Of a stretch of 64,000 nt of DNA, positions 4,634 to 63,227 are shown one piece after another. Origin of the DNA: an uncultured Planctomycetales bacterium (GTDB lineage: Bacteria > Omnitrophota > Gorgyraeia > Gygaellales > Profunditerraquicolaceae); NCBI GenBank assembly GCA_964542785.1, contig CAZIUK010000003.1, positions 12,946 to 76,945 of the forward strand, written 5' to 3'. Below the pieces are notes generated by a model. That model was not told the origin of the DNA. It ran no database searches and was given only the letters and a program-made list of their open reading frames with translations. Position numbers and translations under genes: made by a program. Each line of letters begins with the position of its first letter. Position 1 is the first letter of the stretch.

Positions 4634-4670
4634 AAAAATATTTTAAAAATTTTAATCAGATTATAAAAAT

Positions 4671-5981: not shown

Positions 5982-5982
5982 G

Positions 5983-7712: not shown

Positions 7713-7720
7713 TAAATGTA

Positions 7721-7748
7721 TTTACAAGCATAGTAAATCTGTTATAAT
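7721..7748 (+). promoter_or_regulatory. Sigma70-like promoter for the symporter gene
   Basis: TTTACA (7721-7726), a 16-nt spacer and TATAAT (7743-7748), lying 77 nt upstream of the ATG at 7825. Confidence 0.5.
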
Positions 7749-7824
7749 ATATTTCTTAATTTTTGCCTATTTTGGCTTTACCTAATATATTAACTGTAGT
7801 TATAAGAGAAAGGACAGGCAACTT

Positions 7825-9336: not shown

Positions 9337-9348
9337 GGTAATAGTACA

Positions 9349-30415: not shown

Positions 30416-30417
30416 TT

Positions 30418-32609: not shown

Positions 32610-32628
32610 TATTATAAATGGTATAAAA

Positions 32629-32665
32629 GGGGACAGCGACTTTTTTATCAAAAAGTCGCTGTCCC
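32629..32665. repeat. REP-like inverted pair (hairpin) between the two secretin genes
   Basis: GGGGACAGCGACTTTTT-tatc-AAAAAGTCGCTGTCCC forms a perfect 16-bp stem. Confidence 0.95.
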
Positions 32666-32670
32666 TATTT

Positions 32671-47000: not shown

Positions 47001-50000
47001 ACCGGATCATTTAAGGTTTGTTTCTGATATACCTACTGCGGATGCCAAGCAGGTCTCTGTGCAGTTTAACCTGCCTCAGCTTGCTGCTGTTGACCGTTAT
47101 GATAATATACTTACTAATGACTACGGAGCTGCTGCTTATTCCGGGAATAAGGCTATAACCTATTCCTTAAGCGGTCAAAGAGACGCTCCCGACGGAAATG
47201 GGACAGATCTTTTTTATTCCGACAATGTAGCTTCGGCGAAGGTAAATTTTACTAACGGCCTCTCAACAAATGCCCTTAGCGCTAAGTTATACCGGGCGCA
47301 GAATACGGTTATATCCCCGGCGGATAGTAATCTTCCCAGCGAGAGTCTTCCTTCTAACGAGATTATTGTTAACCCGGCTACAGCGACAAAACTGGTCTTT
47401 AAACAGCAGCCTTCTGGCAGTGCGATAGTCAACTCTGCCTTTTTACAACAGCCGGTAGTAGCTATCCAGGATCATTACGGCAACCAGACTTTGGATATAT
47501 TCCCGATAAAGCTCTATGATTCTATCCGTTCGGAATTTCCTTATGCCGATGCTCCTGGAATTTTAACTTCTGACCACGAGGATAATACATTAAATGCCGT
47601 TGCAGGCGAGGCGTCTTTTAGCGGGGTTGAATATAATGCCTCAGGTGTAATATACCTGTATGCCCAAGGATTAGGCGCAGGCAGCAATGTTAACCCTGTT
47701 TTTTCAAATGAGATAACCCTGGCTACTTCCGTCACAACCATGGTTAAGGCCGCGGATACTCCTGTAGCTGACTTTAACCTAACTCCTACCAACGATACAT
47801 TGGAAAAGAAGTTTAAGGTTTTAAAGTTTAAGGTAACTGATGCCGGAGAAGATAAGACTCCTACATTGATCGATCAGATTAAAATAGCAGTATCCGGCAC
47901 CGGGGGTCATGCTTCTACAGATATTGCCTGGGCAGGTTTATATGTAGGAGAAGAAAAGGTGGCGGATGCTGCTTCTATAACAGATGACTTTATTACTTTT
48001 GGGCAGGAGCCTAACAGCGATTCTACTGCAGGTATCTACAGCGTGCCTGATAGTAGCTCTGTTGAATTTACCGTGTATATCCATATGAAGCCGGATAAGT
48101 TATCCGCCCTTGACGGCCAGTCGTATATCTTTACTACTGATGAAGATAGGGTAGGGGTTGACAGAGGGGCTTCTTCGCAAATGACGGCAAGCTCAGGCAG
48201 TATAGCCGCTGTTACCGGAACTATTAAAGTTGATATGACGCATCTTGAGATTGTAACTGAAGAAGGAGCCTCAACATTAACTGTCTCTGCTGGGGTGCCG
48301 GTAGAGCTGTTGGTGCGCGCTACCGACGCTAATAAGAACATAGATAGCGATTATAATGGTAGCCATACCTTAGTCTTCTCAGGGTTAAATAGTGTTGGTA
48401 CCCTTTACCCAAAGATAGAGAGTGTCCTTTTTGGCTATAATATAACTATTTCTTTTTCAGGAGGTATTTCTGCTTCTCAAGGAGTTACCCTTACTCCTTA
48501 TAAGAGCGAGGAAGGTATAATCGTTGTCCAGGAATCAGGAAAGTCTTACAGTCAGCATGGATTAACTGCCACGATTAATGCGGGTGCTGCCAGTAATATT
48601 GCCCTATTAAGCGGCAATAACCAATCTGGAAAGATAGCCGCGCCTCTACTCCAGGCTTTTGTGGTGGCAGTTACCGATGTTTATGGTAATGGTATTGGAT
48701 CTGGGACCGGGGTTGATTTTGCTATTCTTAGCCAGCCTGAAGGTGCAACAGGAGCTTTATTAAGCACTATTTCTGGTGTAACTGATGCTAATGGCCATGC
48801 CTTTACAACCCTGACTGTAGGTAGCCTTGCTGGTGATTATCAGGTGACTGCTTCTTCAGCGGGGTTATCTGGTTCACCGGTAACTTTTATCGCTACGGGT
48901 TTACTCCCTAGTGCAATTCAGCTTTTAAGCGGAGATAACCAGTCTAAACAGGTAGTTTCTGCATTAGATGACCCTCTGGTAGTTAAAATAGTTGATTCAA
49001 CAGGTATTCCTATTCCTCGTGAGAAAGTGGATTTTACTATATCTTCTTATCCTGAAGGCGCGGTTGGGCAAGCGCTCTTGTCAGGCTCAGTGGTAACTGA
49101 TGATAACGGCCAGGCACAGACCAGCTTTACTTTAGGAGATAAGGCAGGGGTTTACAAGGTAACTGTTAATTGCGGTTCGCTTACTGCGGTTGATTTTAAT
49201 TTTAATGCTACTGCCAGGGCTCCTTATCAGGTAGCCTTAAGAGGTCCGGTTTCAGTCAAGGCAGGGGAGGTCTCTACCAAATTTACCGTCTCCATAGAGG
49301 ATGAATACAATAATCCTTCTAATTTATCCCAGGCAACTGTATTTTCATTAACCAATAATCCTTCTCGGCCAAGCGGAATATTTTATTCAAATAGCGACGG
49401 GACGTTAGCAATTAATTCTCTGACTGTAGCTAAGGGTACGAATAGCGCCAGTTTTTACTATAAGGATACAATAACTGGCATGGCGAATATTACGGCAACC
49501 CGTACTAGCGGGCAGTCTTTAATCCAGGGAATATCAAGCCAGGAAGTTACGGTTATCCCTTCGGATGCCTATCGTTTTACTATTGTTGGCAATACTGATA
49601 CTATAGAGACAGGGGAAAGTAAAGTATTGACCATAACCGCTTATGATAATTTAGGCAATGTAAAGAGCGATTATACCGGGAATGTTAATGTTCTCTTCTC
49701 TGGGGCTAGTGCTTCCCCAGCTCCTTCATCAAAGAAAGCCACAGCTTCTAACCATCTAAGTCAGGATATTGAATTTGGAAAGACTACCAGCCTAAACTTT
49801 ATTAATGGTGTAGCTGTTTCAACCTTGAAGTTTTATAAAGTAGAGGATGTGAATATAAAGATAACCAGCGGTTCAATAGTTACTGCTGAAGAGGATAGTC
49901 TAAGCTTTACCGTCAGGCATGGTCAGGCAGATCACTTGAAATTCGGCGGGAATCTTCCTGCTTTGCAGGAGGCGGGGGTAGAGTTTGATTTTGAAACTAC

Positions 50001-53000
50001 GCTGCAAGCGGTTGACCTTTATGATAATATCTGCAACGGCCTTAATGGTTCTTCCGGATTCTCTGGTTCAAAGAAGGTTACCTGGAGTTTAAGCGGAGCT
50101 TCTGATGGACCTGAGGGGAATGTTATTGATGAGTTTGTCAGTCCTGTAGAGTTTAGCTTAGGGGTATCCACTACTACTTTAAGCGCAAAGCTCTACCGTG
50201 CACAGGATACCACCATTACCGCTGCTATTTCTGCTTTAATAGGGGTAAATGTTGCTTCGAATACAATTACAGTTGAGCCTGGGGCAGTAGCAAAGCTAAG
50301 GTTCTCTCAGGAGCCTGCGGCTTCTTCCATTACCAGTCAGGCTTTAGAGGTACAGCCTAAGGTTGCGGTAAGTGATCAGTATGGTAACCCTGTTTCTACT
50401 ACCTCGGCTAACGTAAGCATTGCTGCTTCAACTAGCAATGATTCATTTGTACCTGTGGTTAATGGAGTATTAAGCGCTATTGGAGGACTTACAGCATCTA
50501 CAGTTAACGGAGTAGCTTCTTTTAGCGGAGTAACCTATAATTATCCTGAGACTATTTACCTTCGCGCCACAGTCGCAGGGGTAAGCCTGGTGCCGGTATT
50601 CTCTTCAGGTATAACATTTAGTACCGCTCAGGAAACAGCTCTCTCTGTTACTACACCAGGGCCTACTGCTATTTCTTCTCTTGCCTATACTACTGCAGAC
50701 AGAGTTGGGGTGCTTAATTTTAGGGTTGTTGATGGGGGGACTGATGGTTTCTCCAGTAAGATACGCCAGGTGATTGTAAAGCGCAACACCTCTGATACTA
50801 CCGGCGGGTGGACAAATTACCTGCAGGGAGTCTATATTACCGATGGAGCAACGCAGGTGGTTGGGAGGATAGAGGATGATCAGATTATTTTTGGCTTGGG
50901 GGGAAATGATATTTATGATGTTACTAACGGCACGACTAAGAATTTTACTGTGAGCGTATTTTTGAAGAATCCGCTCCCCTTAGATTCAGATAATAAGGTT
51001 TTGGGTTTCAAGCTTGATCCGGCTACAGATATAGTATTTGGTTCACCTAGCTCTAGGCTTGTCTCTTCTTCTGTGATGAGTTCAACTCCAAAGATCTCGG
51101 TTGTGGCTACTGATTTTGCTATTTTTGGCTCTCCTACCATGAATGCCGGAGATACCCAGCCGATTACGCTTAAGGCCGTAGATATACTGGGCAATATTGA
51201 TAAGGATTATGTTGGAGAAAAAACTTTAGTTTTTAGCGGACCAAGTATAACGAGTAAAGGAAATGAGCCCATCGAGACGACCTCAAATATTCCTTTTGGT
51301 ACGGATACCCCGGTTTCTTTTACCAACGGCCAGAGCTCATCTACCGTCGGGATTAAACTCTTTAAAGCCGAAACTGCTTATGTTAAGGCAGCCGATATTT
51401 CTGCGGGGATAACTACTCCTAATCAGAAAGCCTTGATTGTTACGGTTTACGGCGGAGCTGCCACGGGTTTAAGTTGGCTTACCCAGCCGGTGGGCGTAGT
51501 TGTCGAAAATGCCCCGTGGAAAGAGTTTAGTATTTCAGTTACCGATGCTTATGGCAATACCTCATCCAGCAGTACTGAGGTAACCGTAGCTCCTTCTAAC
51601 GGCAGTATCTCTACAGGTTCGCAGGCAACAGTTACCGCTCAATCGGGAATAGCCACATTCTATAATTTTGCGGTAAATGGTCTTAATGATGAAGAGAAGA
51701 TCACTTTAAGCGCATCAGCAAGCGGGGTAGCCGGTACCGGTCCTTCCAATGAAGTGCAGGTATTTAAGGTTTATAAGGTAACGGTCTTTGTAAAAGATTA
51801 TACTAGCGCTAGTAATCTTACTGAATGCGCTTTGGATGCCACATCTAACGGAGTAGTCGTAGATGGTTTTCCAAAGACAGGCAACAGCCCGTTTACTTTT
51901 AACTTGCCCTACGGGACGTATACCTTCCGGGTCTCTAAGGAAAAATATGTTGATGAAAACACCGAAAAGACAGCTGGTGTTGCCGCGGATTACCTGGACG
52001 GAGTATATGATGCAAAGATTACCTGGTCTTTGACTGCTACAAGTTTAGTTGAGGCTACTGCTGATTATAAAGCACAGAGCGCTTTTGTTTATGATGAAAG
52101 TACTGACAAGCTTTCTATCCGCGTCTGGCTGGAGAAGCGCGGGAAGATGGTAGTTAATGATGATGTTAATATTTTAGGTAATGCGGTTGTAGATATCTAT
52201 AATGATTCTACCGGGGGATGGCTTAAGTCAATTACCTTAGAGCCTCCTGCTGCGTCTAATACTGTAAATGGAGTTTATTTTAAGGAGATACCTAATGTAG
52301 TTTCTGTTGACGATGATTTTAACCTTGTTGCAGGCAAGACCTATTTTGCCCGTGTTGTCATTAATTATGGTGGGCTTACTGGTACAGGCAGAAGTTATGA
52401 AGGAGGAGCGACCTTTAGTGTTACTATAAACGAGAATCTGCGCGCAGTTACTAATTCTATTCAGACGGTTGCTACTAATATCGCCGGGCAGACTGCGGCA
52501 ATTCAAAAGACGATAAAGGATGAGATAGAAGGCCAGATTACTAGTGTTGTTGTGCCTAAGATTACTGATGTAAAGACTGAGACATCTAAGATTCTTTCTG
52601 CCACAGGCACAGAGTCTTTGCAGGATAAGATTGCCGAGGTAAAAACACAGGTAGTCCAGGAGGTTCAGCCGCATATTAAATCCGGTATATTAAATGGAGA
52701 GACTGCGGTAAGAACTGGCTCTAAACTAGCTGTTCGTTATCGAACTGATTCTGGACTTTCTCCAACGATATCCGTATATAGCCCCAAGAACAATCTTCTT
52801 ATCTCCGACAGGGCTATGGCAGAGATAGGGATAACGGGAATCTATGAGTATAATGTAACATTTTTACCGGCTTGGGGGAGGGGATCCTTTACTATTGTTT
52901 GTTCAGAGCCGGTAAAAGGAACAGCTGATGCCTTTGTGCTTAAGGTAAGTGATTCGGATATAGAGGATATATCAAGTAGTGTCTCTGCTGTTTTAGGTAG

Positions 53001-53370
53001 CACCTCTGGCATTACCAACCTTAAGAAAGTAACCGAAACCTTAAACGCGCAGTTTAGTGATATGGATAAGGCTATTGCCCAAATCAGCAAGAATATTACT
53101 GGAAAGGTTGAAGAGGTAAAAGGGGCTGCCGTTGAACTTGCCGGCGTATTTAAGCAGCTTGAGGATATGAGTAATACCATTAAGAGCTTAGGAGGGACAG
53201 CCGGTATAAATATTGATAAGATTTACGAGGTATCTAAAGATAAGCAGGAGGATATTAGTTATATTAAGAATAAGAGCGAAGAGCTTAAGGCGGCGATGGA
53301 GCTTAACCAAAAGATGATAGAGAATGTTGCTAAGAAGCCAGTAGTTCAAACCTGGTTTGAATTCAAGTAA
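44023..53370 (+). CDS. Giant (3115 aa) secreted surface protein with Big/Ig-like repeats and a coiled-coil-like C-terminus
   Basis: It has a signal peptide. Invasin/intimin-type Big-like units are visible (LLSGNNQSGKIAAPLLQAFVVAVTDVYGNG...DYQVTASSAGLSGSPVTF). A 643-aa module occurs twice almost identically, and a diverged third copy lies at about 49.5-51.5 kb. A carboxypeptidase-regulatory-like segment is also present (YKVTVFVKD...GTYTFRVSKEKY). Confidence 0.75.
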   Translation: MKKILKVLLIGGLALWGYFESASLALGANLSISSASDQTFISEEAPKDAQAITITDVSGSGIIVSSGLRILIPDSFGMQWHGAMLRDDSVTDTSNADFSVIAAQIISAGVTLESSDAGATGSVEVNFTSINSIPADAKIVITFPDNFVFNSKSPTLASSATMSGDFSVSITGQVITVTRNSTSASSAGSHLITLTNIKNPIRPGTTGAYSLKIQTLAGFDIDVNNDLAASTIVPAATSRITLNSPDDMTAGAARAAYTLTRYDEYGNLSTQEEEVFDISTTSTGDNAVFYNDATASEAGNIITSITIPQGSSSVNFWYDDTKMGAYTIAAIKSDQPEITVSDGINVKHAEPDHLRFVSDIPTADAKQVSVQFNLPQLAAVDRYDNILTNDYGAAAYSGNKAITYSLSGQRDAPDGNGTDLFYSDNVASAKVNFTNGLSTNALSAKLYRAQNTVISPADSNLPSESLPSNEIIVNPATATKLVFKQQPSGSAIVNSAFLQQPVVAIQDHYGNQTLDIFPIKLYDSIRSEFPYADAPGILTSDHEDNTLNAVAGEASFSGVEYNASGVIYLYAQGLGAGSNVNPVFSNEITLATSVTTMVKAADTPVADFNLTPTNDTLEKKFKVLKFKVTDAGEDKTPTLIDQIKIAVSGTGGHASTDIAWAGLYVGEEKVADAASITDDFITFGQEPNSDSTAGIYSVPDSSSVEFTVYIHMKPDKLSALDGQSYIFTTDEDRVGVDRGASSQMTASSGSIAAVTGTIKVDMTHLEIVTEEGASTLTVSAGVPVELLVRATDANKNIDSDYNGSHTLVFSGLNSVGTLYPKIESVLFGYNITISFSGGISASQGVTLTPYKSEEGIIVVQESGKSYSQHGLTATIVPAATSRITLNSPDDMTAGAARAAYTLTRYDEYGNLSTQEEEVFDISTTSTGDNAVFYNDATASEAGNIITSITIPQGSSSVNFWYDDTKMGAYTIAAIKSDQPEITVSDGINVKHAEPDHLRFVSDIPTADAKQVSVQFNLPQLAAVDRYDNILTNDYGAAAYSGNKAITYSLSGQRDAPDGNGTDLFYSDNVASAKVNFTNGLSTNALSAKLYRAQNTVISPADSNLPSESLPSNEIIVNPATATKLVFKQQPSGSAIVNSAFLQQPVVAIQDHYGNQTLDIFPIKLYDSIRSEFPYADAPGILTSDHEDNTLNAVAGEASFSGVEYNASGVIYLYAQGLGAGSNVNPVFSNEITLATSVTTMVKAADTPVADFNLTPTNDTLEKKFKVLKFKVTDAGEDKTPTLIDQIKIAVSGTGGHASTDIAWAGLYVGEEKVADAASITDDFITFGQEPNSDSTAGIYSVPDSSSVEFTVYIHMKPDKLSALDGQSYIFTTDEDRVGVDRGASSQMTASSGSIAAVTGTIKVDMTHLEIVTEEGASTLTVSAGVPVELLVRATDANKNIDSDYNGSHTLVFSGLNSVGTLYPKIESVLFGYNITISFSGGISASQGVTLTPYKSEEGIIVVQESGKSYSQHGLTATINAGAASNIALLSGNNQSGKIAAPLLQAFVVAVTDVYGNGIGSGTGVDFAILSQPEGATGALLSTISGVTDANGHAFTTLTVGSLAGDYQVTASSAGLSGSPVTFIATGLLPSAIQLLSGDNQSKQVVSALDDPLVVKIVDSTGIPIPREKVDFTISSYPEGAVGQALLSGSVVTDDNGQAQTSFTLGDKAGVYKVTVNCGSLTAVDFNFNATARAPYQVALRGPVSVKAGEVSTKFTVSIEDEYNNPSNLSQATVFSLTNNPSRPSGIFYSNSDGTLAINSLTVAKGTNSASFYYKDTITGMANITATRTSGQSLIQGISSQEVTVIPSDAYRFTIVGNTDTIETGESKVLTITAYDNLGNVKSDYTGNVNVLFSGASASPAPSSKKATASNHLSQDIEFGKTTSLNFINGVAVSTLKFYKVEDVNIKITSGSIVTAEEDSLSFTVRHGQADHLKFGGNLPALQEAGVEFDFETTLQAVDLYDNICNGLNGSSGFSGSKKVTWSLSGASDGPEGNVIDEFVSPVEFSLGVSTTTLSAKLYRAQDTTITAAISALIGVNVASNTITVEPGAVAKLRFSQEPAASSITSQALEVQPKVAVSDQYGNPVSTTSANVSIAASTSNDSFVPVVNGVLSAIGGLTASTVNGVASFSGVTYNYPETIYLRATVAGVSLVPVFSSGITFSTAQETALSVTTPGPTAISSLAYTTADRVGVLNFRVVDGGTDGFSSKIRQVIVKRNTSDTTGGWTNYLQGVYITDGATQVVGRIEDDQIIFGLGGNDIYDVTNGTTKNFTVSVFLKNPLPLDSDNKVLGFKLDPATDIVFGSPSSRLVSSSVMSSTPKISVVATDFAIFGSPTMNAGDTQPITLKAVDILGNIDKDYVGEKTLVFSGPSITSKGNEPIETTSNIPFGTDTPVSFTNGQSSSTVGIKLFKAETAYVKAADISAGITTPNQKALIVTVYGGAATGLSWLTQPVGVVVENAPWKEFSISVTDAYGNTSSSSTEVTVAPSNGSISTGSQATVTAQSGIATFYNFAVNGLNDEEKITLSASASGVAGTGPSNEVQVFKVYKVTVFVKDYTSASNLTECALDATSNGVVVDGFPKTGNSPFTFNLPYGTYTFRVSKEKYVDENTEKTAGVAADYLDGVYDAKITWSLTATSLVEATADYKAQSAFVYDESTDKLSIRVWLEKRGKMVVNDDVNILGNAVVDIYNDSTGGWLKSITLEPPAASNTVNGVYFKEIPNVVSVDDDFNLVAGKTYFARVVINYGGLTGTGRSYEGGATFSVTINENLRAVTNSIQTVATNIAGQTAAIQKTIKDEIEGQITSVVVPKITDVKTETSKILSATGTESLQDKIAEVKTQVVQEVQPHIKSGILNGETAVRTGSKLAVRYRTDSGLSPTISVYSPKNNLLISDRAMAEIGITGIYEYNVTFLPAWGRGSFTIVCSEPVKGTADAFVLKVSDSDIEDISSSVSAVLGSTSGITNLKKVTETLNAQFSDMDKAIAQISKNITGKVEEVKGAAVELAGVFKQLEDMSNTIKSLGGTAGINIDKIYEVSKDKQEDISYIKNKSEELKAAMELNQKMIENVAKKPVVQTWFEFK
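44711..48576 (+). repeat. Near-perfect in-frame tandem duplication, 2 x 1929 bp
   Basis: Copy 1 spans 44711-46639 and copy 2 spans 46640-48568. The shared 8-mer CCACGATT sits at all three boundaries (44711, 46640, 48569). I found one mismatch (A44730 versus G46659, synonymous). The translated copies are identical. Confidence 0.95.
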
Positions 53371-55075: not shown

Positions 55076-55711
55076 GGGGACAGCGACTTTTTGACTTTTT
55101 ATTTTTAGCTCTTTGATAATTTTTACTTAAATTTTTAAGTTAGATTTCCTTCCTTGCCGCGTCTATTGATAGTGAAGGTGATAGATGATATAGGGCCTAA
55201 AAGGAAGGGGTGGTATGGGGAGAATAGCCAGAATAGTAGGAGTAGGGTTGCCGCACCATATTACACAGAGAAGGAATTACCAATAATGTTGCTCATATGC
55301 GTTATTCGCAGTATTTTAATAATAAATTAAACCAGCGAGGGCATCTTTGGCAGGGAAGATTTTATTCTTGTATTTTGTCGCAAGCGCACCTTATGCTTGC
55401 TGCTTGCTATATAGAGCGTAATCCTGTACGCGCGGGTTTAGTAGATCAGCCATGGCATTGGCAATGGTCAAGTGCTGCCAGCCATACAAACCGTAAGATT
55501 GATGAGTTGGTTAATTCTGATGAGTTGTTAAAGCTTGTAGGTATGTCAAGCTCTTCTTGGGAGAAATATATAGAAACAAAGGAAGAAGAGAGTTTTTTGC
55601 AGGATATAAGGAAACATACTTTTACCAGTCGTTCTTTTGGCGTGGTTTAGGTTATTTTAAGGAGCAGGTCTAAGAAGGATAGGGTTGGGTTAAAAAAAAG
55701 TCGCTGTCCCC
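55076..55711 (+). mobile_element. Decayed REPtron: RAYT pseudogene bracketed by inverted REP-like half-sites
   Basis: GGGGACAGCGACTTTTT (55076-55092) and its exact reverse complement AAAAAGTCGCTGTCCCC (55695-55711) flank the RAYT remnant. Confidence 0.7.
55215..55650 (+). pseudogene. REP-associated tyrosine transposase (RAYT, IS200/Y1-like) with an internal deletion and frame break
   Basis: The N-terminal fragment MGRIARIVGVGLPHHITQRRNYQ* (55215-55286) resembles the RAYT N-terminus. The C-terminal fragment lies in another frame (55297-55650) and carries GHLWQGRFYS and YIERNPVRAGLV..WQWSS. The central segment of about 70 aa that normally carries the HUH motif (NHxHLL) is missing. Confidence 0.7.
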
Positions 55712-55735
55712 GTTTTAGTATGGAGGTTATTTAAG

Positions 55736-56614
55736 ATGCATAAAGATGTAGATATTTTAGTTATCAAAGGAGAAGAAAAAGCCACAGGGTTGATTGAATC
55801 TACGGTTCGTTCTGCAGGCTACAATGTTTGGTTGGCCAATGATCATAATGAAGGCTTGAAGCTTTTGCGTTCTAATACTTTCCCGATAGTAATTACAGAA
55901 GTACTTTCTGTAAAGATGGATGTTGCTCACTTTTGTAGAGAGGTCAACAAACTAAGCCCGTTGACTAACGTGATTGTTGTTGCCCTCTATTCTTTAATTA
56001 ATAACGCTATTAAGGCTATGGAGGCAGGGGCTTACGGGTATATTACTAAGCCACTAAATGTTTCTGAAATACGTATAGTCGTGGAGAGGGCAGTAGAGAG
56101 GTACTTTCTGTTTTCTGCCAGGGAAGATAAGGATTATTTTGTTGATTTAGCTGTAAGGGATGGGCTTACCGGACTTTTTAATCGGCGCTATTTTAATGAA
56201 TTAATAAAAATAGAGTTTAGCCGCATTAAGCGGTTACCGTCGTTTCTCTCTCTGCTAATTCTTGACATAGATAATTTTAAAAACTATAATGATACGCAAG
56301 GACATAGCGCAGGCGACATTTTATTAAAGAATGCCGCTAAAATTTTTAAGAGTTCTGTGCGTACCGTAGATATAGTTTTTCGCTATGGGGGAGAGGAGTT
56401 TGCAGTAATACTTCCTAGTACAGATAAAAAAGGGGCTCAGATTATTGCAGAGAGGATACGTATGCAGGTGAGCCTGTATCTACCTACTACTGTAAGTATA
56501 GGCATTTCTACTGCCCCAGAAGATGCCGAGGAGATAAGCCTATTGATAGAGAAGGCGGATAAGGCTTTGTATCAAGCGAAGAACAGTGGTAAAAATAAGT
56601 GGTGTGTTGCATGA
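55736..56614 (+). CDS. Diguanylate cyclase with a degenerate receiver domain (REC-GGDEF)
   Basis: 292 aa. The active site GGEEF has an RxxD I-site (RTVD) 5 residues upstream. In the REC domain the phospho-acceptor position reads IVITEV (Glu instead of Asp), and the acidic pair is replaced (ILVIKGEE). Confidence 0.8.
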   Translation: MHKDVDILVIKGEEKATGLIESTVRSAGYNVWLANDHNEGLKLLRSNTFPIVITEVLSVKMDVAHFCREVNKLSPLTNVIVVALYSLINNAIKAMEAGAYGYITKPLNVSEIRIVVERAVERYFLFSAREDKDYFVDLAVRDGLTGLFNRRYFNELIKIEFSRIKRLPSFLSLLILDIDNFKNYNDTQGHSAGDILLKNAAKIFKSSVRTVDIVFRYGGEEFAVILPSTDKKGAQIIAERIRMQVSLYLPTTVSIGISTAPEDAEEISLLIEKADKALYQAKNSGKNKWCVA

Positions 56615-56835
56615 GGGTTCTTATACTAGAGCCTAAAGGGACTATTTGGGAGGGGATAGCAGAGCAAGTGACCCTTCCGGCTAAAGAAGGTCAAATGTGT
56701 GTGCTTGATTTTCATCAGCCTTTTGCAGTTAGGTTGATAAATGGCAGCATTGTTTTTAGCAATAAAAGAATAAAAATAAAAGACGGGGTTGCTTATATGC
56801 GGTCTAACAATTTGACGGCCTTTGTGCAAACTTAA
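56611..56835 (+). CDS. atpC: F-type ATPase epsilon subunit, beta-sandwich domain only
   Basis: 74 aa from MRVLILEPKGTIWEGIAEQVTLPAKEGQMCVLDFHQPF.... This fits the pattern of the epsilon N-terminal domain, and no C-terminal helical hairpin is present. An ATGA overlap links it to the GGDEF gene stop. Confidence 0.6.
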   Translation: MRVLILEPKGTIWEGIAEQVTLPAKEGQMCVLDFHQPFAVRLINGSIVFSNKRIKIKDGVAYMRSNNLTAFVQT

Positions 56836-56840
56836 AAAAT

Positions 56841-57053
56841 ATGAGTAGTATAGGATTAATTATCGTTATGTTTTTAAGCACTGCCGGCCCGGCTGCAGTT
56901 ATAGCTTTTGTAGGATATGCTGCGGTTAAGGCGGTCGCGCGTAATCCTTCCGCGAGCCCAAAGATATTTACTGTTATGATTCTATCATTTATATTCGCAG
57001 AGGCGATAGCGATTTTAGCCCTTCTGATTATATATAATTTGTTTACCAAATAA
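56841..57053 (+). CDS. atpE: F-type ATPase subunit c
   Basis: 70 aa forming a two-helix hairpin. The loop is ARNP and the helix-2 carboxylate is in IFAEAIAILAL. Confidence 0.8.
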   Translation: MSSIGLIIVMFLSTAGPAAVIAFVGYAAVKAVARNPSASPKIFTVMILSFIFAEAIAILALLIIYNLFTK

Positions 57054-57060
57054 GATAAAT

Positions 57061-57774
57061 ATGTTGATTAACCTTTTGATTTTGCAAATTATTACCTTTA
57101 TAGGGGTTGTCTTACTTTTACGTTTTATATTTACCCGCCACTTAAAATCCGCGTTATCCAGGCTTAATGCCTTGCATGGGGAAAATTTATCTAAAGAAGA
57201 AGAGCTTAAGGAGGAGATCAGGCGTGTTAAGGAGCAAAGCGAAGCCTTTATTAAACAAAGCAGGGAAGAAGCAGAATTAATCATTGCTGAGGCTAATAAG
57301 AATGCTCAGAGAATTAGGATGAATATTGAGGAGCAGGCTAGAAATCAGGCAGAGAAGATCATCAGTGATTCTCGCATAGATAGCGAGAAAATTCAAAAGG
57401 AAGCACTTAAGAATATACAGGGACAGAGTATAGAGTTAGCCTTAAGGATGATTTCAGAATTGCTTACTGAAACAGATAAGGTAGCTTTGCAGTATGAGTT
57501 AGCCAACGGTATTATTGAAGAGATCTCCCGATTGCCTAAAGAACAGTTTAGTGTTCCCGGGGGGGAAGTCAACATTACTTCCAGCTTTCCGCTGTTAGAA
57601 AGGCAATGCAATAAAATAAAGAGTATTCTTACAGATAAATCAGGTTCGCCTGTAAATTTAAATCAAAAGTTAGACCCGGAGATTATCGGCGGGCTTATAG
57701 TTGAAATGGGGGGCATGGTCATCGACGGGACATTAAGAAGCAGGCTACAGAGGGTTGCTGAGGGGTTTAAATAA
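57061..57774 (+). CDS. atpF: F-type ATPase subunit b fused to a delta (OSCP) C-terminal domain
   Basis: 237 aa with an N-terminal TM and a charged helix typical of subunit b. The C-terminus VNITSSFPL...LDPEIIGGLIVEMGGMVIDGTLRSRLQRV matches the delta C-terminal pattern. Confidence 0.65.
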   Translation: MLINLLILQIITFIGVVLLLRFIFTRHLKSALSRLNALHGENLSKEEELKEEIRRVKEQSEAFIKQSREEAELIIAEANKNAQRIRMNIEEQARNQAEKIISDSRIDSEKIQKEALKNIQGQSIELALRMISELLTETDKVALQYELANGIIEEISRLPKEQFSVPGGEVNITSSFPLLERQCNKIKSILTDKSGSPVNLNQKLDPEIIGGLIVEMGGMVIDGTLRSRLQRVAEGFK

Positions 57775-57778
57775 GCTT

Positions 57779-59251
57779 ATGGCTGTTGAGGCGTTAGATA
57801 TTAAAGAAGTAGGCAAGGTTGAGGAGCTTAAGCAGGGGATCGTTAAAATTAGTGGTTTGCCTAATTGCGCCTTTGGGGATGTTATAACTTTTGATAATTC
57901 ATCTTTTAGCATTGATAGTATGCTTAAGGGGATGATTATTGAGTTTGATTCTAAATACGCCTTTGGCATTGTTTTTGGGGATGAGCATAGCATAAAAGTA
58001 GGGGATATTGTTTCTAGCCGTAAACATTTATTAAGCGTACCGGTTGGAGATAGTTTTATAGGTAGGGTGGTAGATGCCTTAGGTAATCCTTTGGATGGTA
58101 AAGGTAAGATAGAGAAGGATGAAGATTATCCGGTTTTTCGGCAAGCTGCCGGGATAATGGAACGCGAACCCATTTCTCAGACTTTGCATACGGGTATTAA
58201 AATTATAGATATGTTGATTCCTTTAGGCAAGGGGCAACGTGAGCTTGTTGTTGGGGATAGGCAAATAGGCAAAACTTCTATTGCCTTGGATATGATAATA
58301 AATCAAAAAGGCAGAGATGTTATATGTATATATTGCTGGATTGGAGGCAGTATATCTGCCTTTAATAAGGTTATTCAGACTATAAAAGAGCACGGGTGCA
58401 TGGATTTTACTTTAGCTGTTTGTGCTTCTGCCGGGTCATCGGTTAGCGAACAGTATATTGCTCCTTATACTGCCGCGGCTTTAGGCGAGTATTTTATGTA
58501 TAAAGGCAAGGATGTGTTAGTAGTTTTTGATGATTTGACTAAGCATAGCTGGGTTTATAGGCAGATGTCTTTGTTACTGGAGCGTGCCCCTGGGAGAGAA
58601 GCTTACCCCGGAGATATATTCTTTCTTCACTCTCAATTAATGGAACGTGCTGGGAGGCTTAAAAAAGAATTTGGCGGAGGAACTATGACTTTTTTACCTT
58701 TGGCTGAAACACTGCAAGGAGATATTACAGGCTATATCTGTTCTAATATCGTTTCAATGACTGACGGGCAAATCTATTTAAATACTGGGTTATTCCAAGA
58801 AGGTTTTAAGCCAGCAATTGATTTAGAGTTATCTGTATCTCGTATTGGCAGTAAGGTACAGTCTCCGGCCATTAAGAAGTTAAGCGAAGGATTGCGTTAT
58901 GAATATGTACATTACCGTTCTTTGTTGAGATTGACGCGCCTGCGGACAAAATTAAGCCCCGAGGCTACGCAACAGATTCAGCGCGGTAGGGCGCTCTATG
59001 AATTGCTTATACAAGAAAATTTTTCTCCTGTTTCTCAAGCAGAAGAGATTGTTTCTTTTTACGCTTTTCAACAAAAAATCCTCGAGTCGATAAATTTGGA
59101 CGAGGTAAAATTGTTTAAGAAAAACTTTTTCCCTTATTTAAGTAAAAATAATCAAGATTTGGTGGATATTTTGAATGATAAAGGTGAACTTACAGAAGAA
59201 GTCAAGCAGCTTTTAGACAAGGCGATAAAAGGTTTTTTTGCGCTTTCATAA
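57779..59251 (+). CDS. atpA: F-type ATPase alpha subunit (divergent)
   Basis: Walker A is GDRQIGKTS. Also present are DDLTKHSWVYRQMSLLLERAPGREAYPGDIFFLHSQLMERA. The start is set at ATG 57779, just after the b-delta stop, whereas the ORF track starts at 57755. Confidence 0.85.
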   Translation: MAVEALDIKEVGKVEELKQGIVKISGLPNCAFGDVITFDNSSFSIDSMLKGMIIEFDSKYAFGIVFGDEHSIKVGDIVSSRKHLLSVPVGDSFIGRVVDALGNPLDGKGKIEKDEDYPVFRQAAGIMEREPISQTLHTGIKIIDMLIPLGKGQRELVVGDRQIGKTSIALDMIINQKGRDVICIYCWIGGSISAFNKVIQTIKEHGCMDFTLAVCASAGSSVSEQYIAPYTAAALGEYFMYKGKDVLVVFDDLTKHSWVYRQMSLLLERAPGREAYPGDIFFLHSQLMERAGRLKKEFGGGTMTFLPLAETLQGDITGYICSNIVSMTDGQIYLNTGLFQEGFKPAIDLELSVSRIGSKVQSPAIKKLSEGLRYEYVHYRSLLRLTRLRTKLSPEATQQIQRGRALYELLIQENFSPVSQAEEIVSFYAFQQKILESINLDEVKLFKKNFFPYLSKNNQDLVDILNDKGELTEEVKQLLDKAIKGFFALS

Positions 59252-59264
59252 ATGGGATAAATGA

Positions 59265-59337
59265 AATGGGGGACGAAATGGGGGACAGCGACTTTTTTCT
59301 AAAAAAAGTCGCTGTCCTCCCATAAAGTCGCTGTCCC
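59265..59337. repeat. REP-like cluster between atpA and atpG
   Basis: A partial head AATGGGGGAC is followed by GGGGACAGCGACTTTTTT (59281-59298). Reverse copies are AAAAAAAGTCGCTGTCC (59301-59317) and AAAGTCGCTGTCCC (59324-59337). Confidence 0.9.
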
Positions 59338-59349
59338 TCCCATTAAAAG

Positions 59350-60192
59350 ATGATACCGGTTGGGAAGCTAAAAGTAAACCTGCAGTTTAATAAGAACCTC
59401 GGCAATTTAGTTGAGGTGATGAAGTTGGCGGCGACCTCGCAGTTTAATCAATTTCGTTTAAAGGGGGAGCCGTCTTCTGAGTATGTAAAGCTGCTTGGTG
59501 ATTTCTTTGGAACCCTTTTAAGTATTGGTATTGGCAATGATTTATTAAGGCCCAGGGAGGGCCTGCCGTCTCTTTTAGTCTTAGTAAGTTCCGATGAAGG
59601 TTTTTTAGGAGAGCTTAACTTTCTTTTAGTTAATAGTCTTCTTAATACTTTAAGGCGAAATGATATCATTGCTTGTTCAGGAACCTTAGGGGCCAACTAT
59701 TTAAAAGAGGTCCAAATTGACTTTTCTTATTTTGATTCTCCTGGAGAAAAGCTTGATACAAAAGCCCTATCTTCCTTAAGGGATTATATATTAAACCTTT
59801 ATTTAAAGAAGAAGGTTGGCAGGGTTTATATAATTTACTCTAAGTTTATAAACATCGGCGCTCAACAGATTGAGGTAGAGACTATATTGCCTTTGTTTCA
59901 AGATTACCAGATGCAAAGAGTCCCCATTCAAAATTTTTTAATTGAGCCTAACCTTAAGTCGGTAATAGAAGGATGGGTTAAAAGCTGGCTGGATTTTCGC
60001 CTTTATCAAATTTTTTGGTTAAGCAAGCTCTCAGAGTTTGCCGCTAGGATTATGCATTTAGAGGGTAGTGTCCAAGAGTTAAAAAGGATAAATGGCCGCT
60101 TGAATATAGAGTATTTTAAATATTTACATGCCTTATCTGATAAATCGATTAGGGAGATTACTGCGGCGCGTTTAATTAATAAATATAGGTAA
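59350..60192 (+). CDS. atpG: F-type ATPase gamma subunit (divergent)
   Basis: 280 aa, positioned between alpha and beta. The N-terminus (NLGNLVEVMKLAATSQFNQF) and C-terminus (LSDKSIREITAARLI) resemble the terminal helices of gamma. Confidence 0.6.
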   Translation: MIPVGKLKVNLQFNKNLGNLVEVMKLAATSQFNQFRLKGEPSSEYVKLLGDFFGTLLSIGIGNDLLRPREGLPSLLVLVSSDEGFLGELNFLLVNSLLNTLRRNDIIACSGTLGANYLKEVQIDFSYFDSPGEKLDTKALSSLRDYILNLYLKKKVGRVYIIYSKFINIGAQQIEVETILPLFQDYQMQRVPIQNFLIEPNLKSVIEGWVKSWLDFRLYQIFWLSKLSEFAARIMHLEGSVQELKRINGRLNIEYFKYLHALSDKSIREITAARLINKYR

Positions 60193-61599
<1,407 letters not shown>

Positions 61600-61601: not shown

Positions 61602-63227
61602 ATGTCTAATAAATTATTAGGAGAGATGTTGTTGAGGAAGAAGTTTATCAGCGAGGAACAACTTTCTCAGGCATTAATGGCTTGTTCTCAGAATGAATCT
61701 ATGTTGGGGGCATACTTAGTGGAGAAAGGTCTTATCAGGGAAGAGGAGCTTTTAAGTGTCTTGTCCGAACAGTTTAATATTCCTTTTCTTTCTAATTTAA
61801 GAGAGGTTAAGGTTTCTACTGAAGCGATAAAAGCTATCCCGGCAAAATTAGTACAACACCACGGGTTTATCCCCATAAGTTTAGATGGCCAAGTTTTAAC
61901 GGTTGTGGTTTTTAATCCCATGGATTTATGGCTTGCGGAAAATATTAAACTTAATTTAGGCTTTCAAATTAAGAGGGTACTCTCTACGCGAAATGAAGTA
62001 GAGAAGGCAATACACAAGTATTATGGTGCTGTTGCCGGTACTGTGGATAAAATCATGGAAGGAAGATTTAGGCCCGGGATAAAGATTGAAAAAAGAGAGA
62101 CCATAGAGGATATTGAAAAAAACTCCGATGAGGCCTCAGTGATAAAGCTGGTGAATCAGATTATTTCAGAGGCAATAAAAATAAACGCGACTGATATTCA
62201 CATTGAGATTTATGAGAAGAAGATAGAGTTGCGTTACCGCATTGATGGAGTTTTACGTGAAATGAAGTTGCCCCAGGATGCTTATTATATCGGCCCGGCA
62301 ATTGTATCCAGGGTTAAAATTATGTGCCGTTTGGATGTTGTAGAACACCGCTTGCCTCAGGATGGCAGGGCAAGGGTGCGTTTAATTAGCGGGCAAGAGG
62401 TAGATTTAAGGGTTTCGGTTTTACCCAGTTATTTTGGAGAGAATGTTGTTATTCGCATACTTCCTTCGGGAGTTTTGCTTTGTTTGGATAAGATAGGTTT
62501 TTTCCCCGAAGATCTAAAGAAGATAAAAATGCTTTTGCAAAAACCGCACGGGATAATCCTTATTACAGGGCCTACCGGAAGCGGCAAGACTACCACGCTC
62601 TATGCTTCTTTAAGCCAATTAAACCGTAAAGAGGTAAAGATAATCAGTATAGAAGATCCGGTTGAATATGCAGTAGAGGGAATTACCCAAATCCATATTA
62701 ATCCTAAAATCGGGCTTACTTTTGCCAGCGCATTACGCAGTGTATTAAGGCATGATCCGGATGTTATGATGATAGGGGAGATCCGAGATCCTGAGACTGC
62801 GGATTTAGCGATACGTTCTGCATTAACCGGCCATTTGGTATTCTCTACGCTTCATACCAATGATTCAGCATCTGGGGTTGCCCGTCTTATAGATATGGGG
62901 ATCGAGCCGTATCTTTTAGCTTCCTCAATTGAGGTAATTATAGCGCAGAGGTTAGTGCGCTTGCTCTGTACTGCTTGTTCAGGAAAAGGTTGCGAGGCTT
63001 GCAGTGAAACAGGGTTTAAGGGGAGAAGGCCGGTTTATGAGATTATGATTATAGATGATGAAATTCGTAATATGATTATATCTCGTAAAAGTTCGCAAGA
63101 AATAAAGGCTAAGGCGCGGCAGAACGGGATGCTTACCCTTATGGATAACGGCATGCTTTTAGTTGAACAAGGTTTAACTAGTAAGGAAGAGATTTTACGC
63201 GTTGTGGAGTTAGAGCAGGAAGGTTAA
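61602..63227 (+). CDS. GspE/PilB/MshE-family secretion ATPase with an MshEN-type N-terminal domain
   Basis: 541 aa. Walker A is GPTGSGKTTT. An Asp box, a His box and a tetracysteine cluster (CTACSGKGCEAC) are present. The N-terminus has two 24-aa MshEN-like motifs separated by 5 residues. Confidence 0.88.
   Translation: MSNKLLGEMLLRKKFISEEQLSQALMACSQNESMLGAYLVEKGLIREEELLSVLSEQFNIPFLSNLREVKVSTEAIKAIPAKLVQHHGFIPISLDGQVLTVVVFNPMDLWLAENIKLNLGFQIKRVLSTRNEVEKAIHKYYGAVAGTVDKIMEGRFRPGIKIEKRETIEDIEKNSDEASVIKLVNQIISEAIKINATDIHIEIYEKKIELRYRIDGVLREMKLPQDAYYIGPAIVSRVKIMCRLDVVEHRLPQDGRARVRLISGQEVDLRVSVLPSYFGENVVIRILPSGVLLCLDKIGFFPEDLKKIKMLLQKPHGIILITGPTGSGKTTTLYASLSQLNRKEVKIISIEDPVEYAVEGITQIHINPKIGLTFASALRSVLRHDPDVMMIGEIRDPETADLAIRSALTGHLVFSTLHTNDSASGVARLIDMGIEPYLLASSIEVIIAQRLVRLLCTACSGKGCEACSETGFKGRRPVYEIMIIDDEIRNMIISRKSSQEIKAKARQNGMLTLMDNGMLLVEQGLTSKEEILRVVELEQEG

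Follow-up and report, generated by a model that had tools for sequence, protein, structure and literature searches.

The stretch of Omnitrophota DNA analysed here, 64,000 nucleotides in length (the window), contains a gene for a predicted diguanylate cyclase that leads directly into a set of F-type ATPase genes. The order of the genes at this locus is giant protein, unknown, Peptidase_MA, cyclase, epsilon, c, b/delta, alpha, gamma, beta, MshE-type pilus ATPase, T2SSF, and PilM/N. The cyclase gene and its immediate surroundings comprise the following features, given in window positions:

55215-55650, plus strand: degraded remnant of a REP-associated tyrosine transposase upstream of the cyclase gene (context, outside the system)
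55722-55726, plus strand: ribosome-binding site GGAGG of the cyclase gene, 9 nt 5' of the start codon (sequence reading)
55736-56614, plus strand: REC-GGDEF diguanylate cyclase gene of the pseudo-receiver type, 292 aa (Pfam Response_reg and GGDEF)
55754-56080, plus strand: REC domain, residues 7-115 (Pfam Response_reg PF00072, E 1.2e-12)
55766-55771, 55898-55900, 55982-55984, and 56048-56050, plus strand: codons of the receiver residues K11-G12, E55, A83, and K105, respectively
56150-56599, plus strand: GGDEF domain, residues 139-288 (Pfam E 2.2e-45)
56262-56290, plus strand: perfect sigma-70-type consensus TTGACA-17 nt-TATAAT inside the cyclase gene, a candidate internal promoter
56360-56371, plus strand: I-site RxxD, R209-T-V-D212
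56387-56401, plus strand: GGEEF, residues 218-222
56611-56614, plus strand: stop/start overlap ATGA of the cyclase gene and the epsilon-like gene (sequence reading)

The first-pass annotation of this DNA had assigned a Glu to the phospho-acceptor position of the receiver and had called for an alignment of this column. The receiver was recognized by PF00072 with 48 bits against a cutoff of 30, and the AlphaFold model of the cyclase, which had a mean pLDDT of 87 and values of 81-95 over blocks 1-120, showed the succession of five strands and five helices that is typical of the (beta/alpha)5 fold. In a MAFFT alignment with CheY and Spo0F, Glu55 fell into the phospho-acceptor column together with D57 of CheY and D54 of Spo0F, and with phmmer it paired with D53 of PleD Rec1. 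The best phmmer match of the receiver was NtrC1 (PDB 1ny5/1zy2), and a residue-level comparison with NtrC1 also puts Glu55 at the acceptor position, in an ungapped match to NtrC-type receivers. In the AlphaFold model, E55 closes beta3 (51-55), where a canonical receiver has its acceptor Asp, while beta4 (78-84) has A83 in its terminal part and beta5 (101-105) finishes with K105. All three alignments and the predicted strand ends therefore agree on a Glu, and no genuine Asp was placed in the acceptor column.

The other pocket residues were also as first described. The acidic Mg2+-binding pair after beta1 is lost and replaced by K11 and G12 in the window's copy, the Thr/Ser column is probably occupied by Ala83, and the Lys column has kept its Lys (Lys105). 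A phmmer comparison with PleD alternatively paired the PleD Thr with S86 via a 3-residue gap, but position 83 was favoured over Ser86 as the conserved Thr/Ser by the ungapped NtrC-type alignment, by the canonical 22-residue spacing between Thr and Lys, and by the predicted strand ends. The window's copy is missing both the Thr at position 83 and the acidic pair, on which a phosphomimetic pocket should normally rely. Recognizable REC domains that have no acceptor Asp are defined as pseudo-receivers (PMC4395418, PMC12632262), and the receiver is such a pseudo-receiver, which has no Asp on which to accept phosphate.

The GGDEF domain, in turn, has an intact GGEEF and an intact RxxD I-site, as had been claimed, and both motifs aligned to PleD. 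RTVD precedes GGEEF by five residues (RTVD-IVFRY-GGEEF), which is exactly the spacing found in PleD (RAID-LPCRY-GGEEF). The metal-binding D177 and D179 and the guanine-binding N185 and D194 also aligned to PleD by phmmer, the latter two as equivalents of N335 and D344, and position 194 is an Asp, unlike the Ser of the cGAMP-making Hypr variants. D177, D179, N185, D194, R209, D212, and the complete GGEEF motif were invariant in the 119 closest orthologues. In the wider family (n=211), D177, N185, D194, D212, G218, G219, E221, and F222 were invariant (D179 was checked in the 119 only), R209 was found in 207 and E220 in 210, with an Asp in the remaining one. Most likely, the domain is a catalytically competent, product-inhibitable cyclase, and its intact I-site would cap the output even of an always-on enzyme.

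More than 200 orthologues of 290-299 aa were found in Omnitrophota, and the acceptor Glu was present in all 119 close orthologues as well as in 208 of the 211 sequences of the wider Omnitrophota family. E11, D/E12, T83, Y102, and K105 were kept in more than 95% of the 211, with Thr at position 83 in 208 of them. One orthologue (P0137) has an Ala at the acceptor position, yet it belongs to the same cyclase/ATPase locus, which suggests that the carboxylate may not be essential. The window's copy deviated at 8 of 48 conserved REC columns, where the family median is 1, versus 1 of 88 in the GGDEF domain. Judged from these alignments, the Glu is a family trait and the window's copy is the most decayed receiver. 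As the Glu and the catalytic residues are conserved features of a family, they are beyond chance. For comparison, we considered an out-group of 30-40% identical GGDEF-protein relatives from a scan of a genome collection, some of which are REC-GGDEF proteins and many of which matched in the GGDEF domain only. The acceptor of the REC-GGDEF out-group proteins was mostly Asp (25 of 31 loci among the matches listed, and 80 of 95 representatives in a second set). In both sequence and fold, the whole cyclase most resembled WspR, PleD, and DgcR, and the receiver alone was closest to NtrC-type receivers.

Since Glu replaces the acceptor Asp family-wide, the enzyme would not be switched by a histidine kinase. 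None was detected within 10 kb of the cyclase among the called genes in nine related loci. The sole histidine kinase found in the window (34490-35965, HisKA_3) was rejected as a cognate kinase, as it pairs with its own NarL-type regulator (receiver profile 92 bits) and lies 20 kb upstream. Most likely, the cyclase is a kinase-independent, product-inhibited enzyme. The literature on receivers of this kind describes Glu as the commonest acceptor replacement (26%), Ala as common at the Thr position, and Lys as usually kept; aspartate-less receivers carry GGDEF as an output domain more often than expected, and a Glu can imitate the phosphorylated state, although by itself it is often insufficient to activate a receiver (PMC4395418, PMC12632262). 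In the NtrC family, the classic example of a phosphomimetic is D54E (Klose 1993, ref. 31 in PMC4395418). The activity of ChxR is independent of its Glu (PMC4395418). The acceptor Glu of the cyclase may act as a natural phosphomimetic that keeps the cyclase constitutively on.

At its 3' end, the cyclase gene overlaps the gene of a 74-aa epsilon-like protein, as the first-pass annotation had seen: the TGA at 56612-56614 shares bases with the ATG at 56611-56613. Such 4-nt overlaps are an ordinary operon feature and occur elsewhere in the window (14185-14188 and 31074-31077). In the relatives, the gap between the two genes is 0-6 nt in five loci and 51-102 nt in four, and the ATGA overlap is found only in the window's genome. 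A search for terminator-like sites found none from the cyclase gene through beta and none before 62459. The junction thus combines a stop/start overlap with the absence of an intervening terminator, as expected for coupled genes, which is consistent with co-transcription of the cyclase and the ATPase genes. As there is a perfect promoter-like site inside the cyclase gene, the ATPase genes could also have their own promoter. This site (56262-56290), which uses a rare GAC Asp codon, was kept in the five closest loci sampled (L082-L086) and lost in the four others (L087-L090), and it could uncouple transcription of the ATPase genes from that of the cyclase gene. No Rfam family, be it a c-di-GMP riboswitch or another structured RNA, reached the threshold anywhere in the window.

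The genes that follow the cyclase encode the subunits of an F-type ATPase and a pilus ATPase:

56611-56835, plus strand: epsilon-like subunit, 74 aa, N-terminal beta-sandwich only (PF02823 ATP-synt_DE_N, 40.4 bits against a cutoff of 27, E 3e-10)
56841-57053, plus strand: c subunit, 70 aa, with R34-N35-P36 loop and carboxylate E54 (PF00137)
57061-57774, plus strand: fused b/delta peripheral-stalk subunit, 237 aa (PF00430 and PF00213; NCBIfam matches)
57755-59251, plus strand: F1 alpha subunit, alternative start ATG at 57779 (NCBIfam atpA, 557 bits against a cutoff of 554; Pfam)
59350-60192, plus strand: divergent gamma subunit, 280 aa (PF00231; TIGR01146, 72 bits against a cutoff of 194)
60196-61599, plus strand: F1 beta subunit with P-loop GGAACGKT and catalytic GERIREGN (NCBIfam atpD, 520 bits against a cutoff of 463)
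61602-63227, plus strand: MshE/PilB-type T2SSE ATPase (T2SSE and MshEN)
61614-61772, plus strand: MshEN N-terminus of this ATPase, residues 5-57, with the tandem 24+5+24 c-di-GMP motif frame (NF053729)

Alpha, beta, gamma, epsilon, c, b, and delta are thus all encoded, with epsilon as a beta-sandwich only and b and delta fused. The initial label atpC for the first of these genes holds insofar as PF02823 identifies the product as epsilon-like, but only the beta-sandwich half of epsilon is present; such short forms (74-81 aa) were found in all 10 loci. The c subunit was 66-90% identical across the nine related loci. With the NCBIfam equivalog models, the scores of gamma, epsilon, and c fell well short of the cutoffs, as mostly did those of delta, which just reached TIGR01145 (60.1 against 57.5 bits). 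Subunit a (ATP-synt_A) was found neither in the scanned ORFs of the window nor within 10 kb on either side in the nine related loci. A 700-nt gap between c and b/delta in one of these loci (L088) contained no ORF for a hidden a subunit, and an upstream protein of 228-236 aa was rejected as a candidate because its hydrophobic segments are at the N-terminal and C-terminal ends only. From its gene content, the partner of the cyclase is therefore not an ordinary ATP synthase operon but an F-type ATPase with no a-subunit gene at the locus, set in a type-4a-pilus/T2SS-like cluster, and the 'atp' genes of the cluster should not be taken to indicate chemiosmotic ATP synthesis.

The pilus ATPase encoded downstream is a candidate receptor of c-di-GMP. 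Its N-terminus matched NF053729 ('c-di-GMP motif, MshE-related') with 53 bits against a cutoff of 38. The MshEN motif consists of two RLGxxhhxxGhhxxxxLxxxLxxQ elements of 24 residues each, separated by a 5-residue spacer (PMC5013675). In the T2SSE of the window, the 24+5+24 frame and most of the hydrophobic, Gly, and Gln positions are kept, the first-position Arg is replaced in both elements (L5 and M34), and the first element further has K14 for Gly and C28 for Gln. We also considered a co-variation of cyclase and MshEN, in which cyclase-less loci would be expected to lose the c-di-GMP motif; these loci, however, retain a canonical motif, so that co-variation gives no support for the proposed target. 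Taken on its motif and position, MshEN is plausibly the target of the c-di-GMP made by the cyclase, whose gene lies 5 kb upstream of that of the pilus ATPase.

A check of the synteny of the GGDEF and 'atpC' genes in relatives, also suggested at the outset, recovered the pairing, with the same gene order, in all nine cyclase-anchored loci and in 22 of 27 gamma-anchored metagenome loci. Among the cyclase-anchored loci, the order was unchanged even though identities fell as low as ~43% for the cyclase and ~35% for gamma. The upstream flank varies among the loci (NYN, transposase, or no Peptidase_MA), and the adjacency of the cyclase and then epsilon persists. The pairing with an F-ATPase operon, originally described as unusual, is therefore real, but it is conserved across divergent Omnitrophota and not a one-off, and the ATPase genes depart from a standard ATP synthase operon. 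The five gamma-anchored loci in which the cyclase is absent indicate that it is dispensable for the ATPase/pilus cluster. By gene order, the cyclase is the usual first gene of an Omnitrophota F-type ATPase/pilus cluster (followed by T2SSF, PilM/N, and pseudopilins) beside giant surface-protein genes, and it is a plausible signalling switch for the ATPase/pilus apparatus.

On balance, we lean towards the explanation that a Glu-pseudo-receiver not switched by a kinase is joined to a competent, RxxD-limited cyclase that heads the ATPase/pilus cluster and acts locally on MshEN. The cyclase would be of the small Rec-GGDEF type, similar to WspR and DgcR, and the Glu carboxylate would hold its NtrC-like receiver in an active-like, dimerization-competent state; in most orthologues, it would be assisted by Thr83, Tyr102, Lys105, and the acidic residues that are still present there. 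The two GGDEF domains of the dimer would then meet and produce c-di-GMP, and this output would be limited by RxxD feedback and not by phosphorylation. In the window's genome, the remainder of the phospho-pocket has decayed further (K11, G12, A83), with the catalytic domain left untouched. The c-di-GMP would act locally on MshEN, and pilus extension or secretion would thereby be tuned for attachment.

The strongest competitor, to which we assign a clearly smaller but appreciable chance, is that the pseudo-receiver is a conditional switch that senses a partner (the ATPase, the pilus machinery, or a giant protein) or a small ligand via its Glu/Thr/Lys/Tyr pocket. The conservation of E11, D12, T83, Y102, and K105 is more than a merely decayed site needs, pseudo-receivers such as FrzS work by protein-protein contacts (PMC12632262), and the cyclase gene is tightly linked to a multi-protein machine. 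However, the window's copy lost E11, D12, and T83 while its catalytic domain is still pristine, and no partner is recognizable from the sequence.

It is rather unlikely that the adjacency is only an inherited order in strand-biased, streamlined genomes and that the cyclase is a general source of c-di-GMP with no functional link to its neighbours. This would be in agreement with a 64-kb stretch in which every gene lies on the same strand and the gaps are short, with the five cyclase-less loci, whose apparatus presumably works, with the MshEN motif not co-varying with the presence of the cyclase, and with the other c-di-GMP components encoded elsewhere, among them PilZ genes and giant proteins that contain GGDEF domains. 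Against this, the arrangement has survived the sequence divergence of gamma and the cyclase described above, the cyclase-epsilon adjacency stays where the upstream flank changes, and ATPase genes were found beside none of the other GGDEF relatives in 80 out-group loci among the matches listed, 31 of which had a full REC-GGDEF match.

A far-reaching extension of our preferred explanation, which we consider doubtful, is that the Glu-receiver cyclase is the dedicated regulator of a novel c-di-GMP-controlled surface machine, composed of an F1Fo-like rotary ATPase that has no a subunit, an MshE-type type-4a pilus, and possibly the giant proteins, and used by ultra-small Omnitrophota for attachment to or attack on host cells, with the Glu as a selected, kinase-free phosphomimetic.

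Degenerate GGDEF receptors normally do not possess the catalytic residues, and we regard it as very improbable that the protein is inactive as a cyclase and instead serves, by means of its I-site, as a scaffold or as a receptor of c-di-GMP in the manner of such degenerate proteins. The RxxD motif is indeed near-invariant (D212 in 211 and R209 in 207 of 211), but GGEEF, the metal-binding Asp residues, and N185/D194 are conserved as well (119 of 119, and at least 210 of 211 at the re-checked columns, with D179 in the 119 only), and they match the active PleD residue for residue; with every catalytic residue conserved, this idea was rejected. Least credible of all is a switch driven by covalent modification of Glu55. 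Methylation or phosphorylation of Glu has been raised as a formal possibility (PMC4395418) and the Glu is strictly conserved, but no receiver Glu is known to be modified in this way for signalling (PMC4395418), neither a CheR-like methyltransferase nor a partner kinase was found in the window or the related loci, and the window's copy is without the metal-binding acidic pair needed for phosphotransfer.

Several percent of all receiver domains are pseudo-receivers, and the present family offers a clean test case for them, with a natural Asp-to-Glu receiver fused to an easily measured enzyme output in more than 200 sequences; it could be used to test directly whether an acceptor Glu is a selected phosphomimetic. 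For the ATPase/pilus locus, the cyclase provides a first candidate regulatory input, in the form of c-di-GMP, with MshEN as the candidate receptor. The ATPase/type-4a-pilus apparatus has been proposed to serve host attachment in uncultivated nanobacteria.

With regard to known systems, the top fold matches of the cyclase were DgcR of Leptospira biflexa, the prototypic small Rec-GGDEF protein (PDB 6zxb/6zxc/6zxm; NF047654), WspR (3bre), and PleD (1w25), all of which have GGEEF and the same I-site spacing. These enzymes are activated by a phosphorylation-driven rearrangement of the dimer, and their acceptor is an Asp, whereas it is a Glu here; in PleD, the pseudo-receiver is a second, extra domain. 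The cyclase shares the two-domain layout and the length of the DgcR model NF047654, with residues 6-288 on positions 4-292 of 295, but its family score of 147 was far below the cutoff of 500 bits. The pilus ATPase has the tandem 24-residue motifs and the 5-residue spacer before T2SSE in common with the MshE/MshEN ATPases (Wang et al., 2016, PMC5013675), but not the first-position Arg. The locus is of the same kind as the 'symbiotic' F-type ATPase/type-4a pilus loci of Omnitrophota, which are non-respiratory and near giant ORFs (Seymour et al., 2023, PMC10066038), and diguanylate cyclase, GGDEF, and c-di-GMP are unmentioned in the text and the available supplements of that study. By NCBIfam scores, alpha and beta resemble canonical atpA/atpD more closely than they do the Mycoplasma gliding or MSC F1-like families, and c and b/delta are kept. 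The receiver naturally carries the same Asp-to-Glu change that activates NtrC in the D54E variant (Klose et al., 1993, cited in PMC4395418), although the output of NtrC is an AAA+ transcription activator and the output here is a cyclase. Aspartate-less receivers with GGDEF domains have been described (Maule et al., 2015, PMC4395418; 2025 J Bacteriol review, PMC12632262) and share the REC fold, the replaced Asp, and the GGDEF output with the present protein, which differs in that the Glu is fixed across an orthologous family, the pocket is mostly intact, and the family is tied to one gene cluster. The cyclase thus belongs to the known class of aspartate-less-receiver GGDEF proteins, and it is its genomic context that is newly noted here.

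The cyclase gene of the window lies at the head of a run of F-type ATPase and pilus genes, all on the forward strand, for which the following features were identified.

55722-55726, +: GGAGG ahead of the cyclase ORF (sequence reading)
55736-56614, +: REC-GGDEF cyclase ORF, 292 aa (ORF call); receiver domain at residues 7-115 (Pfam, E 1.2e-12), GGDEF domain at residues 139-288 (Pfam, E 2.2e-45)
from 56611, +: epsilon-like subunit, 74 aa, beta-sandwich (PF02823, 40 bits vs threshold 27)
56841-57053, +: c subunit (Pfam)
57061-57774, +: fused b/delta subunit (Pfam)
57755-59251, +: alpha (NCBIfam atpA, 557 vs cutoff 554 bits)
59350-60192, +: gamma (Pfam; far under the NCBIfam equivalog cutoff)
60196-61599, +: beta (NCBIfam atpD, 520 vs cutoff 463 bits)
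61602-63227, +: T2SSE-family ATPase with MshEN N-terminal domain (domain search)

The first-pass annotation had described a receiver with Glu at the acceptor position, a lost acidic pair, Ala at the Thr position, and a retained Lys. Aligned by MAFFT to CheY and Spo0F, Glu55 shares the column of CheY D57 and Spo0F D54, K11/G12 occupy the acidic-pair columns, Ala83 the Thr column, and Lys105 the Lys column. In a separate phmmer alignment to Rec1 of PleD, Glu55 stands opposite D53, and K11/G12 opposite D9/D10. This alignment placed S86 at the Thr position via a 3-residue gap, but position 83 is favored, as the best receiver matches, NtrC1-type receivers, align without gaps, the Thr-to-Lys spacing is then the canonical 22 residues, and the strands of the AlphaFold model agree (mean pLDDT 87; beta3 51-55, beta4 78-84, beta5 101-105). 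Taken together, these alignments and the evidence for position 83 show that the residue calls were correct, with Glu rather than Asp in the acceptor column.

The GGDEF domain likewise matched its earlier description, with an intact GGEEF and an RxxD I-site. Its GGEEF (218-222) and RxxD I-site (209-212) match GGEEF and RAID of PleD residue by residue in phmmer, with the same 5-residue spacing, and N185 and D194 pair with the guanine-binding Asn/Asp of PleD. Judged by these residues, the domain appears free of any sign of degeneracy.

A search of a 5.8-billion-protein collection returned more than 120 full-length cyclase matches with 61-79% identity, mostly 291-293 aa long, and all those with a source name were labelled Omnitrophota/Omnitrophica. 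A 43%-identical member served as the query of a further search, which widened the family; its named matches were mostly Omnitrophota, with one labelled PVC group and one Parcubacteria. The acceptor is Glu in 208 of the 211 members, and Ala, Lys, or Asp in one member apiece. Glu is found at position 11 in 201, Asp/Glu at position 12 in 205, Thr at position 83 in 208, Lys105 in 209, and Tyr102 in all 211, so that the acceptor Glu is a fixed family character in an otherwise well-kept pocket. In the GGDEF domain, D177, N185, D194, D212, G218, G219, E221, and F222 are present in 211/211, R209 in 207, and E220 in 210; D179, checked in the 119 closest orthologues, is invariant there. The orthologue P0137 (10001-10894 of its locus, L090) has Ala (LTAL) in place of the Glu and keeps the full locus, which argues that the acceptor carboxylate is not indispensable.

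The window protein is the outlier of its family. Among 48 highly conserved receiver columns it has 8 departures (family median 1), including E11K, T83A, N62D, and G63V, against 1 departure in 88 conserved GGDEF columns; D12G is an extra departure in a column conserved just as Asp/Glu, outside the 48. As its nearest relatives (75-79% identity) mostly retain E-D-D-E-T-K, with Gly12 in one of them (P0004), this extra decay is recent. Among the nearest out-group REC-GGDEF proteins, the acceptor is mostly Asp, in 25/31 loci among the matches listed and in 80/95 representatives at 50% clustering; a few further representatives with Glu, at 36-47% identity, seem to be deep branches of the cyclase family itself.

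Nine orthologues on long contigs, with cyclase identities to the window between about 43% and 69% and gamma identities as low as about 35%, were examined for gene order. All nine loci share one order, in which a giant protein of 2,500-6,100 aa is followed by a 228-236-aa unknown protein and then Peptidase_MA_2, a transposase or NYN gene being sometimes inserted and Peptidase_MA_2 itself sometimes absent. The order continues in 9/9 with cyclase, epsilon, c, b/delta, alpha, gamma, and beta, then T2SSE (MshEN), T2SSF, and PilM/N, and, in loci whose 10-kb flank extends there, an approximately 177-aa protein and a T2SSG pseudopilin. The c gene is present in every locus, though gene callers often overlooked it. 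In the window, the cyclase TGA stop (56612-56614) overlaps the epsilon-like ATG (56611-56613) as had been noted, a distance of -4 nt. Five of the related loci have 0-6 nt between the two genes, and the other four have 51-102 nt. The adjacency is thus conserved, whereas the overlap is particular to the window genome.

In the reverse direction, a metagenome scan anchored on gamma yielded 27 loci that extend 4.3 kb or more upstream. The cyclase precedes epsilon in 22 of them and is absent from five, all of one divergent subclade, where Peptidase_MA directly precedes epsilon or, in L144, an unknown 234-aa gene does so. Wherever a locus of the scan covers the receiver N-terminus, Glu is the acceptor. 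No ATPase genes were found near out-group GGDEF-protein relatives in 80 loci (31 with a full REC-GGDEF match) among the matches listed. From the nine-locus order, the 22/27 loci, and the 0/80 out-group loci, we conclude that the cyclase-ATPase pairing is specific and widely conserved, yet not obligatory. The pairing, earlier described as unusual, is real and no isolated case. The cyclase-less subclade includes L144, L156, L157, L159, L162, and L170; in L170 the slot of the cyclase is taken by a separate receiver domain (6546-6932, about 130 aa), whose acceptor is a normal Asp.

No terminator-like site was found from the cyclase gene to position 62459, in keeping with a single long transcript. 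Within the cyclase coding sequence, approximately 320 nt upstream of epsilon, lies a 12/12 match to the sigma-70 consensus (TTGACA-17-TATAAT, 56262-56290), which may not be the promoter type of Omnitrophota. The site falls on codons of the conserved LDIDNFKNYND stretch and relies on GAC, a rare Asp codon here (16% of those for Asp). The five closest loci sampled retain it, and the four distant ones do not. It may act as an internal promoter of the ATPase genes.

The genes after epsilon are spaced 2-98 nt apart or overlap. Direct sequence reading showed that alpha and beta retain the P-loop, catalytic Glu, and Arg finger, and the c subunit retains the R-N-P loop and carboxylate E54. Gamma, epsilon, and c score far under the NCBIfam equivalog cutoffs, as mostly does delta, which just reaches TIGR01145 (60.1 vs 57.5 bits). 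Epsilon is without its C-terminal helical domain in 10/10 loci (74-81 aa), and b and delta form one fused protein. No a subunit was found in the scanned ORFs of the window or within 10 kb in the nine related loci (L082-L090). Unless an a subunit is supplied from another locus, the genes at 56611-61599 and their counterparts would make up a rotary machine that lacks the ion channel partner normally found with it. "Symbiotic", non-respiratory F-type ATPase clusters beside type-4a pilus genes have been described in every Omnitrophota class, with both gene sets at most 10 kb apart in 57/66 contigs (Seymour et al., 2023; PMC10066038). According to a 2026 preprint (bioRxiv 10.64898/2026.06.07.730766), 125 of the 176 complete genomes studied carry alpha and beta but just 30 a recognizable gamma, which fits the divergent gamma observed here. 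A diguanylate cyclase at this locus is mentioned neither in the preprint nor in the text and available supplements of Seymour et al. (2023). West-Roberts et al. (2023) describe PilZ genes that follow giant genes, as well as GGDEF domains within the giant proteins, and do not note the cyclase gene.

A direct functional tie of the cyclase to the F-type ATPase itself is speculative. The pilus ATPase is a candidate c-di-GMP target, as its N-terminus scores 53 bits (cutoff 38) against the NCBIfam model "c-di-GMP-binding, MshE-related" and retains the 24+5+24 frame of the motifs that Wang et al. (2016; PMC5013675) defined. In the window protein, L5 and M34 replace both first-position Arg, and K14 and C28 replace Gly and Gln of motif 1, which is canonical (R/K-I-G) in more distant loci. 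Cyclase-less loci also retain the motif; a link between the two proteins is plausible, though co-variation gives it no support. That the cyclase supplies c-di-GMP to this ATPase is a reasonable, if tentative, proposal.

The whole region is a type-4a-pilus/T2SS-like super-locus. Upstream of the cyclase lie a HisKA_3 kinase and the NarL-type regulator that belongs to it, DUF2341, FGE-sulfatase, and Ig-domain proteins, and a 3,115-aa protein. At 29591-34611, 20 kb upstream of the pilus ATPase, an ExeA/MshM-like AAA ATPase is encoded together with an unknown protein of 219 aa and a consecutive pair of secretins, of which the second is fused to TPR repeats, in a layout resembling the MSHA-type pilus secretion operon. 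The gene of the 3,115-aa protein (44023-53370) contains a 1,929-bp tandem duplication (44706-48563; copies starting at about 44706 and 46635) whose copies are essentially identical, with 8 mismatches in the 1,947 nt compared, which may sit at the repeat edges. Either a block of 643 aa was duplicated very recently within the gene, or the repeat is an artefact of assembly. Between Peptidase_MA_2 and the cyclase gene, 55215-55650 holds a remnant of a REP-associated tyrosine transposase (Y1_Tnp), corresponding to residues 1-23 and 76-197 of an intact 223-aa gene at the same position in L083 and lacking the segment that bears the HUH motif. An intein with a LAGLIDADG homing-endonuclease domain interrupts the ribonucleotide reductase large subunit (19404-23003). 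At 7-11643, the first ORF (1,138 aa, with an M54 peptidase-like domain close to its N-terminus) may represent the tail of a larger gene that extends beyond the beginning of the window; it is followed by two PilZ genes (3589-4633, domain search), a solute-binding protein, ABC permeases, an MFS transporter, and a GH2-like enzyme, the series found downstream of Omnitrophota giant genes by West-Roberts et al. (2023).

The place of the cyclase, heading the Omnitrophota F-ATPase/pilus locus, is conserved and previously unremarked. The observation of the first-pass annotation is confirmed and its interpretation partly supported. Kinase independence, which it had proposed, is very probable from the sequence, with the Glu acceptor fixed in 208/211. 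That this Glu is a selected phosphomimetic is an attractive reading, because the receiver is NtrC-like and its pocket conserved, and we regard it as somewhat short of an even chance. In aspartate-less receivers, Glu is the commonest acceptor replacement, Ala is common at the Thr position, and GGDEF is an enriched output (PMC4395418, PMC12632262). The cyclase is one of the aspartate-less (pseudo-)receiver GGDEF proteins, a known class, and the models nearest to it in structure and sequence are DgcR, WspR, and PleD.
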